Origin: Octopus vulgaris
Lineage: Eukaryota
DNA: 64,000 nucleotides
NCBI GenBank assembly: GCA_951406725.2
Contig: OX597814.1
Location: forward strand, 65,782,001-65,846,000
Direction: 5' to 3'
Part shown: one piece after another, positions 34,109 to 43,702 of the stretch
How positions within the stretch are numbered: the stretch's first letter is position 1
Layout: each line of letters opens with the position of its first letter
Translations under genes and position numbers: made by a program
The notes under the pieces: generated by a model
Told to the model about the DNA's origin: nothing
Database searches by the model: none
What the model saw: only the letters and a program-made list of their open reading frames with translations

Positions 34109-34287
34109 CATGTTTTTAAGCCGAAAAAGATCTTCACAAACTCTTGTTAAGATCTGTGAAGATTATTTCGATTTTAATGAAAAAGCATAATACTCTACTT
34201 TTGATATTTGAGTACTATATTTTCCGCCTTGTTTTGCACTTATATACTTACATATATGTGTATGTATATGTATCACTCTTACCACCT

Positions 34288-36029
34288 CCATTTACTACAA
34301 ACACACAGACTCACACTCATACCTAAACTTCTCTTCCTCCCACCTCAAACACACCAAGCTTTCCATCCCCTATTCCCAATTCCTCCATCTATGTAGGCTC
34401 TGTAGTGACGACCATGACCTTGAGACTCAGTCTCAACTCATGGCTCGCCACTTCATCCTACGTGGATACCCCCTCACCACTATCCACACCGCCCTTGCCA
34501 GAGCACTTTCCGCAGACCGAGCATGTGCTCTCTCCCCGCGAACCCGCCCTGTAGTCTCCCGCCTCCCTTTTCCCCTCACTTACCACCCCACGACCCTACC
34601 TCTCCAACGCACCATTCTTCGAGCTTTCCGGCATCTCCAGTCCACCCGTCCACTTCACACCTCTTCCCTAACCGACCCTTCCCCTCCTCCAAACGAGCCC
34701 ATAACCTACGAGACCTCTTGGTCCGCAGCTCCTTCCCTGACCCTACCTCCCAACCTGGCTCGTTCCCCTGCTCCCGCCCACGTTGCCGCACTTGCCCTTA
34801 CCTCTCCAACACCACCCTCCTCACTGGCACCCATCACCGACCCTATCGCATCATCAACTCCTTCACCTGCATCTCCAGCAATATCATCTATTGTATTTCC
34901 TGCTCTCTCTCTGCCATTCCCTGTACATCGGACAAACGGGACGCCGCTTGGCTGACCGGTTCGCGGAACACCTCCGTGACATCCACCTTGCCAATAACAC
35001 ACCGGTCTCACGCCATTTCCGTTCCACCGGTGACTCCTTGCAACACCTGTCTGTGTTCGGATTGTCCTTGGACAGAGGCCATCCGGATTTCCGTTTGCGC
35101 CGTGAACAGGGATTAATCTTCTCTCTTCGCTCTTTTACGTCATTTGGTCTCAACTCTCCCCCCACTTCTCATCTAACCTCCCCCCGACTCCTACTTCTCT
35201 TCAATCCTTCATCTTTTCACCCCTACTCTCTTTCCCTCCTCTTCTTTCCTCTTTCTTCTTCCCTCTTCTCCTTCTCTCTTTCTCTCTGCTCCCTCACTCC
35301 CCTTCTCTCCCGCTCCCCCTCTTCCTCTCCTCTCCTTTCCCATCCCCTTCCACTTCTCCTCTCCTTCCTCCCCCTGTCCCCCTCCCCTTCCCTCTCCTCT
35401 CCTCTCCTTCCTTCTCCGCCACCTCACCCCCTCATCTCATCTCCTCTTTCCCCTCCCACTCATCTCTCCTCCCCTCTCCCTCATCTCTCTTCCCTCCTCC
35501 ACTCCTCTCTCTTCTCTCCGCCTTTCACTCTCCCCACAAACCCCACTCTACCCCAAGCCCCAGCCGAACCCACACCCCACATGGGCTTTCCCCACCTCCC
35601 CACCTCCCCACAACATCACACCACACTACACTACACCATACGACATTACACATCACATCATACATACATACACACGTCCAGACCTTTCATACGCACATAT
35701 ATACTCTCTCATACACACACGCACCCTTATGTTGGGGCGAGGTCATTTGACCCTGTTATCTCCCAAACTATCCCTCTTGCGTCTAACGTCTGATCTCTGA
35801 CTTCTGGCCGAAATCAGACCGCCATGTTGAATCGTTAGCTCCTGCGCGTATTTTTCTTCTCTCCTTGCTTCTCTCCGTGTTTCTTTTCTGTGTATCTTTC
35901 TGTTGAAGAGCGTAGGCTCGAAACGTAAAAGACTTGTTTTATTTCTATTCCTGAGCGCCATACTAATACAATTGTTTGTTTGTACTCCACCTGCCTTCGT
36001 CTTTTGTTTATTTTCGTAAAGCTTCCCAT

Positions 36030-37013: not shown

Positions 37014-37395
37014 GTATGTGTATATATGGACTTGTGTGTGCATGTGTGTTTGTAGATATGTGTGTGTATGTGTGTATGTATATGTGTGTGTGTGTATGTA
37101 TGTGTGTATGCATATGTGTGCGTGTGTGTGTATATATATACATATGTGTATATGTATAAGTGAGAATCTCCTTATTTACCTAAAACTCTATTCTTCTATA
37201 TATTTTTCTATATTATTTTTTATTCTTTTATTTTATTTATTCTTTTATTTATTCTTTTATCTATTTTACCACTGACTCCTTGACCACTCCCCCAAGTATG
37301 ATATTTTTGCGCTATGCCTACCCCCAAAAAGTCCCCCACCACCACCCCTTTAAACCTGCCTAAATGTATAAATGCCAATACAATTCTTGTTAACT

Positions 37396-37446
37396 AGCTT
37401 CCTGATGATTTCTCTTGAATGAAACAGTTCTAGTCCTGTAGAAGAT
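37396..37446 (+). ncRNA. Type I hammerhead ribozyme (mirror copy, one helix I mismatch)
   Basis: agcttc-CTGATGA-tttctcttgaat-GAAA-cagttctagtcctg-TA-gaagat. Confidence 0.75.
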
Positions 37447-37457
37447 CCTTCTATATA

Positions 37458-37692: not shown

Positions 37693-38097
37693 TACTCTTT
37701 TACCTTTTTAATTTTTTTTTACTCTTTACATATTTCAGACTATTTGACTGCGCCCATGCTGGAGCACCGCCTTTAAGACCCAGGACTTATTCTTTGTAAA
37801 CCTAGTACTTATTCCATTAGTCTCTTTTGCCGAAACGCTAAGTTACGGGGACATAAACACACCCGTGTCGGTTGTCAAGTGATGTTGGAGGGATAAACAC
37901 AGTCACACAAACATATACACACACATATATATATACACGACGGGCTTCTGTCAGTTTCCGTCTACCAAATCCACTCACAAGGCTTTGGTCGGCCCGGGGC
38001 TATTTTAGAGACACTTGCCCAAGGTGCTTCGCAGTGGGTCTGAACCCAGAACCATGTGACTGGTAAGCAAGCTACTTACCATACAGCCACTCCTGCG

Positions 38098-38100
<3 letters not shown>
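37693..38100 (-). mobile_element. SINE family A, full length
   Basis: Head (reverse complement) aggcgcaggagtggctgtatgg..gggttcagaccc. Confidence 0.9.
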
Positions 38101-38146
<46 letters not shown>

Positions 38147-38265
38147 CAATCAAGGAACGGCCATAATAGGCCATTCACCCACTAGAAATAACAGCCAAAA
38201 GCTTTAACCGCAAAATAACGTCAATTCCGTAAACCAGGAAAAAATTGAAAAACATTTACCCTGTA

Positions 38266-38372
38266 ATTTCTTAGACGATGCACCGTTTCATCTTCTGTTT
38301 AATGGAAAACTAACCTGATTAAATTAAATCAAGCCAATCTACCATAGGCCCTTAGATTCATCAGTAAGAAAT
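38266..38372 (-). ncRNA. Type I hammerhead ribozyme, array copy 1
   Basis: Reverse complement: atttctta-CTGATGA-atct..agat-GAAA-cggtgcatcg-TC-taagaaat. Confidence 0.88.
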
Positions 38373-38754
38373 AGCCAAGCCAGAACAGATATTTTTCACG
38401 AGGCATTCTCGTTGCTACCTCGTCAATATCTGACCTAAAATTTTCAAATCGTCGCACTCGCGCCAAATTTATCGGCAGCAAATAAATATAAGCCGCCGAT
38501 TCCATTACGGAATTAACCAGAAAATTCATAATTAATCAATATAGGGTGGCAAAAAAATTTTGTAGAATTCTTTTGCCACCAGCGGCTAGTGGGAAGAAAT
38601 TAAATAGTCATAAACCATTTTTAAGTTCAACATCACAATCAAGGAACGGCCATAATAGGCCATTCACCCACTAGAAATAACAGCCAAAAGCTTTAACCGC
38701 AAAATAACGTCAATTCCGTAAACCAGGAGAAAATTGAAAAACATTTACCCTGTA

Positions 38755-38861
38755 ATTTCTTAGACGATGCACTGTTTCATCTTCTGTTTAATGGAAAACT
38801 AACCTGATTAAATTAAATCAAGCCAATCTACCATAGGCCCTTAGATTCATCAGTAAGAAAT
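38755..38861 (-). ncRNA. Type I hammerhead ribozyme, array copy 2 (helix III G>A variant)
   Basis: As copy 1, but GAAA-cagtgcatcg-TC. Confidence 0.8.
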
Positions 38862-39245
38862 AGCCAAGCCAGAACAGATATTTTTCACGAGGCATTCTCG
38901 TTGCTACCTCGTCAATATCTGACCTAAAATTTTCAAATCGTCGCACTCGCGCCAAATTTATCGGCAGCAAATAAATATAAGCCGCCGATTCCATTACGGA
39001 ATTAACCAGAAAATTCATAATTAATCAATATAGGGTGGCAAAAAAAATTTTGTAGAATTCTTTTGCCACCAGCGGCCTAGTGGGAAAAAATTAAATAGTC
39101 ATAAACCATTTTTAAGTTCAACATCACAATCAAGGAACGGCCATAATAGGCCATTCACCCACTAGAAATAACAGCCAAAAGCTTTAACCGCAAAATAACG
39201 TCAATTCCGTAAACCAGGAGAAAATTGAAAAACATTTACCCTGTA

Positions 39246-39352
39246 ATTTCTTAGACGATGCACCGTTTCAACTTCTGTTTAATGGAAAACTAACCTGATT
39301 AAATTAAATCAAGCCAATCTACCATAGGCCCTTAGATTCATCAGTAAGAAAT
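39246..39352 (-). ncRNA. Type I hammerhead ribozyme, array copy 3 (helix II mismatch)
   Basis: As copy 1, but agat>agtt before GAAA. Confidence 0.8.
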
Positions 39353-39781
39353 AGCCAAGCCAGAAAAGATATTTTTCACGAGGCATTCTCGTTGCTACCT
39401 CGTCAATATCTGACCTAAAATTTTCAAATCGTCGCACTCGCGCCAAATTTATCGGCAGCAAATAAATATAAGCCGCCGATTCCATTACGAAATTAACCAG
39501 AAAATTCATTGATTGTGATGTTGAACTTAAAAATGGTTTATGACTATTTAATTTTTTTCCCACTAGGCCGCTGGTGGCAAAAGAATTCTACAAAATTTTT
39601 TTTGCCACCCTATATTGATTAATTATGAATTTTCTGGTTAATTCCGTAATGGAATCGGCGGCTTATATTTATTTGCTGCCGATAAATTTGGCGCGAGTGC
39701 GACGATTTGAAAATTTTAGGTCAGATATTGACGAGGTAGCAACGAGAATGCCTCGTGAAAAATATCTATTCTGGCTTGGCT

Positions 39782-39888
39782 ATTTCTTACTGATGAATCT
39801 AAGGGCCTATGGTAGATTGGCTTGATTTAATTTAATCAGGTTAGTTTTCCATTAAACAGAAGATGAAACGGTGCATCGTCTAAGAAAT
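39782..39888 (+). ncRNA. Type I hammerhead ribozyme, array copy 4
   Basis: Helix I atttctta/taagaaat; CTGATGA 39790-39796; helix II 39797-39864; GAAA 39865-39868; predicted cleavage after GTC 39880. Confidence 0.9.
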
Positions 39889-40272
39889 TACAGGGTAAAT
39901 GTTTTTCAATTTTCTCCTGGTTTACGGAATTGACGTTATTTTGCGGTTAAAGCTTTTGGCTGTTATTTCTAGTGGGTGAATGGCCTATTATGGCCGTTCC
40001 TTGATTGTGATGTTGAACTTAAAAATGGTTTATGACTATTTAATTTTTTCCCACTAGGCCGCTGGTGGCAAAAGAATTCTACAAAATTTTTTTTGCCACC
40101 CTATATTGATTAATTATGAATTTTCTGGTTAATTCCGTAATGGAATCGGCGGCTTATATTTATTTGCTGCCGATAAATTTGGCGCGAGTGCGACGATTTG
40201 AAAATTTTAGGTCAGATATTGACGAGGTAGCAACGAGAATGCCTCGTGAAAAATATCTGTTCTGGCTTGGCT

Positions 40273-40379
40273 ATTTCTTACTGATGAATCTAAGGGCCTA
40301 TGGTAGATTGGCTTGATTTAATTTAATCAGGTTAGTTTTCCATTAAACAGAAGATGAAACGGTGCATCGTCTAAGAAAT
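40273..40379 (+). ncRNA. Type I hammerhead ribozyme, array copy 5
   Basis: CTGATGA 40281-40287; predicted cleavage after 40371. Confidence 0.9.
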
Positions 40380-40765
40380 TACAGGGTAAATGTTTTTCAA
40401 TTTTCTCCTGGTTTACGGAATTGACGTTATTTTGCGGTTAAAGCTTTTGGCTGTTATTTCTAGTGGGTGAATGGCCTATTATGGCCGTTCCTTGATTGTG
40501 ATGTTGAACTTAAAAATGGTTTATGACTATTTAATTTTTTCCCACTAGGCCGCTGGTGGCAAAAGAATTCTACAAAATTTTTTTTTTGCCACCCTATATT
40601 GATTAATTATGAATTTTCTGGTTAATTCCGTAATGGAATCGGCGGCTTATATTTATTTGCTGCCGATAAATTTGGCGCGAGTGCGACGATTTGAAAATTT
40701 TAGGTCAGATATTGACGAGGTAGCAACGAGAATGCCTCGTGAAAAATATCTGTTCTGGCTTGGCT

Positions 40766-40872
40766 ATTTCTTACTGATGAATCTAAGGGCCTATGGTAGA
40801 TTGGCTTGATTTAATTTAATCAGGTTAGTTTTCCATTAAACAGAAGATGAAACGGTGCATCGTCTAAGAAAT
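40766..40872 (+). ncRNA. Type I hammerhead ribozyme, array copy 6
   Basis: CTGATGA 40774-40780; predicted cleavage after 40864. Confidence 0.9.
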
Positions 40873-43702
40873 TACAGGGTAAATGTTTTTCAATTTTCTC
40901 CTGGTTTACGGAATTGACGTTATTTTGCGGTTAAAGCTTTTGGCTGTTATTTCTAGTGGGTGAATGGCCTATTATGGCCGTTCCTTGATTGTGATGTTGA
41001 ACTTAAAAATGGTTTATGACTATTTAATTTTTTCCCACTAGGCCGCTGGTGGCAAAAGAATTCTACAAAATTTTTTTTGCCACCCTATATTGATTAATTA
41101 TATATATATATATATATGAGTGTATGTATGTACGTATGTATATATCAAAGTCACAGATTTTTAACATCTGTAAGTAAATATCAAAGCACAATAACATTGA
41201 ATTTAGAATATATATATATAAATATCTTTGTATTAATGCTAGCTACAAGTAAGACTAGAATATTTAGTCTCTCACTAAATAGAATTACTTGTTCATTGAG
41301 TATCCTGTATATTACGTCGACATTTTACCTGTAACTAAGTCAAAGGGTGAATTAGAACAATATCGTGTGTGGTAAGTATGAACTCTTGAATTGCAGATAG
41401 AATCCAACCGACGGCATCTTGCACTGTTTCCGTCCACACAGTTTCACTAACAAGGCTGGGGGGCATTATATACAAATGGCCAAGAAATTCGCTTTGCAAC
41501 TACGAAGTCCTTTGTTCTATCCTGTTTCGGAGTATTTGACCAAATGTGTCTCTCCATTGCTTTAGGTCGTCCCCAAGTCTGACCACAATATATTACCATC
41601 AATGACTTAATTAATGGTACCCAAATATTTGAACTTACTCTTCTTTATGTTCGACAAGCTCTTAGATTTGATAACTTGCGTGTGATAAATCACAAATTTA
41701 ACTACAATAATACAGCAAGAATATATAAACAGTGGCCTAATGATTAGGCAAGCTCATTGACAGTGAATAGTAGAGAGCTTTGATAAGGCATGTTGCAAAG
41801 TAGATTTAGTGATTCTATCGCTAGTAATACATAAATTCGAAGCAATACATTTGCAAATCTTCAAAATGATTAATGGCAGCAAGGAATTTCACAAAGGCAA
41901 TGGACTAACTTGATAACATCATAACACAAAGAGTAGTGATATTAGACTGTGATGGATATGATTGAAATGTGTAGAGAATTATGATCGGAAGTGTTGATGT
42001 GAATAGGTGTACAATGTATTTCAGTTTAGATAGCTCGCCTGCGTTAAAATGGAAGCTAGAGTCAATCATTAAAATTGAAAGTGAAGACATCAATGCTTGA
42101 CGTGTAGAGCTAAGTAGGTGCTAACAAAAGAATCGTTGAAGCAGCTAACATAAGGCGAACTTCTTATTATAGAGACAACTATATATATATATATATATAA
42201 TGTAATACGGAATATATATATATATATATATATACATACACACACACACATATATATATAAATATTCCGTGTTGCATTCTAATAATACCATATATAGTCA
42301 ATGGATACTCAAGTGTGTGCTTGTTTGCATGTATGCGAAGGTGCACTGACACATATATACATATGTAATGTATATATGCTTGCTAAGGATATATATGCAT
42401 TTATACCGTATGTCTACAAGCACATATATAATCAATTCGAGTTATATATCTATGTGCCTACCATGTTTCTCAATATGATGTATCGACATATCGATCTATA
42501 TTCTATATTCAGTATTACTGCTCCTCCTTTTCTCAGTAATAACACTCTGTATGTGTGTCTATGTGTATGTGTGTATGTGTGTGTGTGTGTTTGCGTGCCT
42601 ATGTGTGTGTGTGTGACCATGACTATACCCACATACACTCACACATATACACGCGTATGCATACACTCAGATATTACATATTAACTAGAGAAATGTGGGG
42701 AAACAATTAACAGAAATAGATCGATAAATTTATGAATGCCCTTGCATGAGGGCAAACATACATTCATTCATACACACATTACACACACACATTACACACA
42801 CACACACAAGCACGCACATATACATACATACATGCATACATACATACATACATACATACATACATACATACATTCATACATACATACATACATATATACA
42901 TGCTTGTATGCATACATACAAATATACACACATCTATGCATACATACATAGAAACATACATACACACAGACATTCATGCATGCAAGGTCGTAAGAAAGGA
43001 CACATCTTCATGTACGGTAACCTGTACCAGTTTTGTATATACATCATAGAATGCATTCTTTCAGAATATATAAACATTATGAAATGCCTCAACTCAATAT
43101 GAGAGACATCGTCTCTAGTTATTTCTAACAAGGACACTTAATTGTCTGCATATCTCTTCCGAACCAGATTTGTGATTTTTATCTGATGGCATAATCAATA
43201 CATTCAAGTGTAAATGTGTCTGTCAGTCAGTGTGTGTGTGTGTGTGTGTTTGTGTCCATGTGTGTGTACTAATAGAAACAAAAAACATACATAATATACA
43301 AACACACACGCACATACATACGCACATACACACACACACGCACACACTCACACACACACACACACGCACATATTGACATAACACTTTTAAAGAAATCTTG
43401 ATTTTTTGCCCCGTTGATCTCGACTTCTTATTTGAAATTGGTACCAATCTCCACCAAGCAACTGATGTACCATTCTTGGAGCGCAGATAATTTGAATAAA
43501 TCAGGAATATATATGGCTTGCTCTTTAATACTTTTTAAAATGTATCTGTATTCGTCTTTTCTGTTCAGAATCATCCCGCTGTCTACTATGAGCTATTTCT
43601 CTTACCACATTTTCACTTTCCACTCGCGCACACACACACACACAAAATATAAGTATGTATGTATGTACGCATGTATGTGTGCGAGTACTTATATAGCGAG
43701 TG

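Follow-up and report, generated by a model that had tools for sequence, protein, structure and literature searches.

How did a tandem repeat that carries a predicted hammerhead ribozyme come to lie in two inverted arms between two (TA)n tracts, with each arm starting where the other ends? The locus that raises this question belongs to Octopus vulgaris and lies within a stretch of 64,000 nucleotides (nt), here called the window (assembly GCA_951406725.2, contig OX597814.1, positions 65,782,001 to 65,846,000 of the forward strand). It consists of two head-to-head arms of 2.79 and 3.24 units, flanked on both sides by (TA)n, and the initial annotation had attributed it to twin-primed reverse transcription of a circular RNA, with both (TA)n strands acting as primers. 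Many hundred copies of this non-coding repeat exist, the locus being one of them, and it is a non-autonomous Penelope-like retrozyme whose anatomy, an inverted copy plus one tail, is already known. The repeat was probably inserted by a Penelope-type reverse transcriptase (RT) priming on both (TA)n strands, with the matching breakpoints at this locus arising by chance. Across the family, the outer ends are fixed and paired, the polarity is head-to-head, the junction between the arms varies, arm stops are in excess just past the predicted ribozyme cut, and the arms of a locus are of one lineage.

Anatomy of the locus and its unit

Unit positions are numbered so that unit position 1 is window position 40001. 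At the locus the unit measures 489-493 nt (a 491-nt repeat), with a GC content of ~35% and copies that are 99% alike. The left arm, on the minus strand (1369 bp), runs from unit 116 (ATGAATTTTC) to unit 13 (TTGATTGTGATGT), and the right arm, on the plus strand (1593 bp), from unit 1 to unit 117. Together they make up 6.03 units and overlap in unit coordinates by 13 nt and 2 nt; the arm coordinates, the overlaps, and the near-six-unit total given in the initial annotation are thus confirmed. The outer ends of both arms join (TA)n via 2-3 nt of AT homology, ending in TA, and the arms meet the tracts directly, with no long terminal repeat, primer binding site, or polypurine tract. The arms are not mirror images, as phase, ends, and the private variants of each unit differ.

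A type I hammerhead motif is present in each full unit, at all six positions at the locus, and in the family loci. The copy at 40274..40379 has an 8-bp stem I, CUGAUGA, a 4-bp stem II base with a 60-nt insert, and GAAA, followed by a stem III of 2-3 bp with a near-palindromic loop and then GUC. The predicted cut falls after unit 371, distant from both breakpoints, and the earlier observation that neither breakpoint is the cleavage site was correct. The fold of the unit lies well below that of shuffled sequences (z -7.6); in free folding of the unit the catalytic core is not formed. Among subfamilies, tolerated changes are seen at core position 7 and in the triplet (GUC/GUA), and a sister family, ~75% alike, has stems I and II swapped for other pairing stems. 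The unit may cleave itself at the predicted cut, 3' of which the arm stops gather.

Outer ends are fixed and paired across the family

A search of the 2.8-Gb genome (227 contigs) with the unit gave 952 candidates, of which 40 were scored. A set of 159 loci was assembled from these 40, 80 tail-anchored loci (the first ones not yet included out of 681 exact tail-plus-TA matches), 25 short-end-anchored loci, and 15 longer arrays, less L098, which proved to be a truncated version of L234; another fifteen tail-anchored loci and five arrays lie outside the set.

Head-to-head arms were found at 128 of the 159 loci and tail-to-tail arms at none. The outer ends fall into two classes, a tail end at unit 108-123 (near 117) and a short end at about 5-16 (near 11), with a few at 470-491. 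One end of each class was found at 117 of the 128 head-to-head loci, with no tail-tail and no short-short pair and with one end unclassified in the remaining 11; the same pairing holds in 34/36 loci of the set not anchored on an end. Genome-wide there are 681 exact tail ends and 404 exact short ends, counted on one strand alone. Both outer ends meet (AT)n through AT across the family, and the inner junction is the only variable breakpoint. The ends are not circularly permuted, and the outcome that the initial annotation had named as a refutation, other copies all ending at a fixed position, is the one seen. Because both outer ends of the studied locus are these fixed ends, only its two inner stops are free.

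The strict rule of one start site per strand appears to be new. In the literature searched, with older reviews of Penelope-like elements (PLEs) and all supplements outside its scope, neither this pairing nor stops at a ribozyme cut are stated.

Arm stops gather past the predicted cut

Among first passes through the unit, counted on 179 end-anchored arms, 34/133 stop in unit 370-396, just 3' of the predicted cut, a hazard 5.1x that expected (p 3e-11). Later passes stop there 14 times among all 273 arms (2.1x, p 0.011), with 9/100 in the second pass, 4/47 in the third, and 1/55 thereafter. The 40 loci selected for a full unit have no first-pass excess, as that selection dictates. Both arms stop in this interval in 12 loci, where 3.1 would be expected (p 2e-7), and in these 12 monomer-length loci an identical stretch was copied by both arms. 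Arm lengths within loci correlate (rho 0.46). A second stop hotspot is the tail hairpin, at the 3' half of which inner junctions are enriched 2.5-3.4x. The pile-up of stops points to a linear sense RNA with a cut 5' end, of which the same stretch was copied twice, and such in vivo traces of ribozyme-cut templates appear to be new.

The arms overlap in unit position in 107/115 two-arm loci. In the other 8 they share no unit sequence; four of these are complex, and L071, L106, L131, and L209 are clean. Second arms of 7-20 nt were also found beside apparent single arms (L082, L143, L223, L237). Arms without common sequence and tiny second arms call for two independent primings. Priming on both (TA)n strands, as the initial annotation had it, is borne out by the AT homology at the ends, the constant head-to-head arrangement, and the arms without common sequence.

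These data suggest a route by which the insertions probably formed. A Penelope-type RT would act in trans and nick both (TA)n strands; one complementary DNA (cDNA) would likely start from one strand at unit ~117, and its counterpart from the opposite strand at unit ~11. The template would be a sense RNA, in many cases a linear monomer, dimer, or trimer whose 5' end the ribozyme had cut, and each cDNA would extend to the cut RNA end, to the tail hairpin, or to a random stop, after which the two cDNA 3' ends would be joined by microhomology or a short insert. For long arms the RNA would have to be an uncut multimer or a circle, or the RT would have to jump repeatedly on one RNA, and some arms likely acquired units after insertion.

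Evidence against the probable insertion by a Penelope-type RT, and fold-back priming as a rival

Several results weigh against this account. The 159 loci are a non-random set, anchored on ends or chosen by likeness to the locus copy or by length. A GIY-YIG search of the genome gave 148 matches, many with a 781-aa frame, and no coding element sharing unit sequence was found among 30 of these 148 loci, nor beside 140 family loci. No hammerhead model of Rfam matched, at gathering or at E 10, and the catalytic fold lies 3.2 kcal/mol above the minimum-energy fold. In the in vitro work on a PLE protein, the available text of PMC11167929 reports no strand bias between start sites and describes ribozyme cleavage as dispensable, with no reads terminating at the cut site. 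From the fourth pass on, stops at the cut are no longer in excess, so that long arms may come from another template form. Finally, 14/105 junctions are symmetric within 4 nt, where 1.9 would be expected, with the 12 double-stop loci excluded, and this symmetry is explained equally well by fold-back of a single cDNA.

In such a scheme priming would be single, with the cDNA self-priming by fold-back and being copied back, and the endonuclease then completing the insertion by a cut into the element itself at the second fixed site. Several of the symmetric junctions lie at short palindromes, palindromes at inverted PLE junctions have been taken as self-priming (PMC3846280) and the tail as endonuclease resolution (PMC8557442), and the scheme accounts for one tail per insertion and for identical arms. 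However, 80/105 junctions lie >30 nt from symmetric, 8/115 loci have arms lacking common sequence, and the tiny second arms are likewise not expected. The antisense template of PMC3846280 clashes with stops at the sense-strand cut, and annealing of two cDNA ends would also give palindromic junctions. Fold-back is thus unlikely to be the source of these insertions.

At the 101 simple junctions there are 44 overlaps, 10 blunt joints, and 47 inserts. The junctions of L031, L130, L048, L240, L059, and L047 lie on palindromes or on two arms of unit hairpins, and L031 and L130, of different subfamilies, have in common a 6-nt palindrome at unit 175. In L124, L150, L095, L115, and L129 the inserts reach up to ~100 nt and contain a repeated 7-8-nt T5-A3-like unit that matches unit 393-400, ~20 nt from the predicted RNA 5' end. 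Such inserts resemble the product of a telomerase-related RT that copies a short template over and over, or of slippage in joining.

Reciprocal junctions, template lineage, and the proposed circular template

The initial annotation took each arm stopping at the other's start, and a near-whole total, as the mark of a circular RNA primed by both strands and rolled round. The reciprocal breakpoints are real at the studied locus, but family-wide they are no commoner than control junctions. The tail-arm start lies <=17 nt from the short end in 8/117 loci and the short-arm start <=17 nt from the tail end in 7/117, with 8.3 expected in each case. Both adjacencies occur together in 2/117 loci, the studied locus and L103, where 0.48 would be expected (Fisher p 0.07 with the prompting locus included); 1/116 remains without that locus, and wider windows give p 0.18-0.26. 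The stop hazard is 0.9-1.3 at the other arm's site and 1.1 at the arm's own site, which would give whole arms. Totals within 0.05 of a whole number occur in 8/117 loci against 11.7 expected, and integer-multiple lengths are therefore not a property of the family. Reciprocal adjacency, single adjacencies, whole totals, and whole arms were thus all rejected as signals, each being at chance level.

Searched for across the genome, this type of junction turned up at 5 places, compared with 1, 4, and 2 for three control junction pairs (P 0.09-0.29). Two are reciprocal, the studied locus and L103, and the other three are self-adjacent, the short-end arm beginning close to its own end position, with the far end outside the locus in two. 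L243, L244, and L245 have a short-end arm with a near-whole number of units and another arm that starts near the tail end, the pattern expected of a circle, which is not significant against the controls. The matching inner breakpoints at the studied locus are likely a coincidence, of which a few are expected per genome.

Between full units there are 1.4 substitutions when they belong to one arm, 1.7 when they belong to opposite arms, and 20 when they belong to different loci, and wherever both arms contain full units (23/23 loci), no other locus is closer to an arm than its partner arm is. In 12/40 arrays of at least 3 units, including the studied locus, a rare variant is fixed in both arms, which implies a step from monomer to multimer, whether by circle, repeated jumps, or DNA duplication; in 8/40 variants are common to some units. 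Two unit types alternate in the short-end arm of L103, L077, and L205, and in the latter two the alternation is limited to one arm, whereas L032, L035, L047, and L223 contain irregular unit mixtures. Alternating variants were therefore discarded as proof of dimer circles, two of the three cases being confined to one arm and other arrays being irregular. Unit number likely changes after insertion.

A circular template retains some attraction, since the studied locus and L103 have both adjacencies with near-whole totals (6.03 and 4.99), the arrays are homogeneous and the rare variants are such as monomer re-copying would give, late passes do not stop at the cut (1/55), and animal retrozymes make circles (PMC7229834). 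However, the ends are fixed, totals are mostly not whole, reciprocal junctions occur at control rates, and a closed circle would not yield excess arm stops at the predicted cut, so that of the traits of a rolling-circle product only the late passes without excess are seen. On a dimer circle the alternation in L103 would demand an even total, not 5, and the one-arm alternation of L077 and L205 is what post-insertion duplication would give. We regard it as very unlikely that the double adjacency arose from both strands rolling round one circular RNA; long arms may nevertheless have been copied from a circle.

Inversion through independent insertions of the two arms into one (TA)n tract, or by later recombination, is scarcely credible: (TA)n tracts do accept repeated insertions (L121, L210), but the arms are of one lineage in all 23 informative loci, the junction is without TA, and polarity and end pairing are strict. 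An assembly or fold-back read artefact is the least credible of all, as the arms are not mirror images in phase, ends, or private variants and one asymmetric rule holds across 128 loci, while the blank result that would favor it, with no listed contig of four public runs (X1, X2, X3, X5) bridging the junction at 39509, is uninformative because the repeat fragments contigs.

The sole opposite-strand joint among the run contigs listed is an ordinary continuation of the unit. At least half of the unit's words are contained in 19/24 listed runs, under three organism labels, all of these data being contigs; in the runs guessed to be RNA the unit is present as contigs, which cannot reveal ends or circles.

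Features of the locus, its surroundings, and related elements

Table 1. Positions of the array, its flanking tracts, and its predicted ribozymes in the window.
Feature	Positions	Strand
Left (TA)n target tract	38100..38141	.
Short-end arm, 2.79 units; 3' end unit 11-13 on (TA)n, 5' (inner) end unit 116	38141..39509	-
Predicted type I hammerhead, cut between 38274 and 38273	38266..38371	-
Predicted type I hammerhead, cut between 38763 and 38762	38755..38860	-
Predicted type I hammerhead, cut between 39254 and 39253	39246..39351	-
Junction of the two head-to-head arms at 39509, sharing 1 exact base	39505..39513	.
Tail-end arm, 3.24 units; inner end unit 1, 3' end unit 117 on (AT)n	39509..41101	+
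Predicted type I hammerhead, cut after 39880	39783..39888	+
Predicted type I hammerhead, cut after 40371	40274..40379	+
Predicted type I hammerhead, cut after 40864	40767..40872	+
106-nt "tail", reaching from one fixed end to the other, on the end of the tail-end arm only	40996..41101	+
Hairpin within the tail, unit 64-100, recurring in every unit	41048..41084	+
Right (AT)n target tract	41100..41117	.

Directly left of the array, window 37713-38099 is flanked by two (TA)n tracts and resembles a further interspersed repeat, and similar sequence, judged by eye, flanks other loci. At about 37395-37450 there is a hammerhead-like motif resembling that in PLE locus L177, which is probably a piece of a different PLE repeat that terminates in (TA)n. 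A decayed remnant with ~30% identity to a PLE protein lies at 34278-34906.

No open reading frame (ORF) for RT and GIY-YIG within the element was matched by tblastn. Among the GIY-YIG loci, L157 and L162 with their relatives form a young coding PLE family with the 781-aa frame and many intact copies. L157 encodes RT, a CxxxxCxxC linker, and GIY-YIG, and appears Neptune-like on the linker as described in the available text of PMC8557442. L157 has no sequence in common with the unit. The L157-type element joins (TA)n at either of two end sites, which lie ~40 nt from each other, the longer end being found in 5/30 loci, and on one contig (C1) 2/9 of its tail ends have a short end opposite them, head-to-head, no more than 2 kb away. 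Exact patterns of the L157/L162 family number 633 short ends against 76 tail ends. The tail of the studied locus bears a faint likeness, judged by eye, to that of the coding element.

The sister family (L121 468-1049; L181-L200) has 1922 candidates, is mostly monomeric, and shows compensated hammerhead stems; it has the same tail hairpin, and (TA)n lies within the unit at the short site. In 20 sister-family loci no sequence link to a helper was found.

Comparison with known systems

The non-LTR retrozymes of animals resemble the family described here in being non-coding, low-GC tandem units that each carry a type I hammerhead. They yield linear and circular RNA (Cervera and de la Pena 2020, PMC7229834), they have been proposed as non-autonomous PLE derivatives (PMC7229834; 10.64898/2026.07.22.740005), and Li et al. 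2026 (10.64898/2026.07.22.740005) derive retrozymes from PLEs. The reported unit is 150-450 nt, compared with 491 nt and a long stem II insert here, and most copies here are short or head-to-head with one tail. In the available text of PMC7229834 the word "inverted" has 0 occurrences, and in that of 10.64898/2026.07.22.740005 it appears in a reference title only.

Endonuclease-bearing PLEs (Penelope/Poseidon, Neptune; PMC8557442, PMC3846280, PMC11167929) have in common with the family partial tandems, a 5'-truncated inverted head-to-head copy, a one-ended tail, a preference for (TA)n, a hammerhead in the repeat, and two internal start sites. Of the traits of PLE membership, the inverted 5'-truncated head-to-head copy with a one-ended tail (117/128) and insertion in an AT-rich microsatellite, with outer ends on (TA)n, are found here. 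The differences are a tail of 30-40 nt in those elements compared with 106 nt here, the family's lack of an ORF, arrays of up to 11 units, and no sequence link to a coding element among the loci compared. The inverted 5'-truncated copy with a tail at one end and a (TA)n bias has been described with its mechanism undefined (PMC8557442), and on this the family bears modestly. Two models are on offer, self-priming on antisense RNA, proposed for head-to-head copies with palindromes (PMC3846280), and two-site internal initiation by a PLE protein, predicted to be a dimer, that in vitro nicks and extends both strands, with two internal start sites bounding the tail (PMC11167929).

It is possible, though doubtful, that the Penelope-type RT is an asymmetric dimer that gives each target strand one fixed RNA start site, with both cDNAs made from one ribozyme-processed RNA to the same 5' end. 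Such a dimer would explain the inversion and one-sided tail of all PLEs, long arms would roll round circularized RNA, and a 7-8-nt stretch would be re-copied in a telomerase-like manner at the RNA 5' end (L124, L150).

Hundreds of young, near-identical copies amount to a population test of strict start-site pairing and of sense templates ending at the predicted cut, the latter unseen in the in vitro study (PMC11167929). The reciprocal junction itself is of little weight, and the interest lies in the family-wide rules. Retrozyme arrays are here tied to PLE machinery by insertion anatomy, not phylogeny, and the family offers a short RNA substrate for bench work.

In L1 twin priming, a model attributed to Ostertag and Kazazian 2001, opposite-strand primers are said to give an inversion joined by microhomology. 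The second priming site is random in L1 but fixed in this family, and L1 arms abut, whereas here the arms usually overlap on the template; abutting of the L1 type, with the outer end of the inverted arm against the inner end of the other arm, is present at the studied locus but across the family occurs at the chance rate (8 and 7/117). Unlike in L1, inversion is the rule in this family, found at 128/159 loci.

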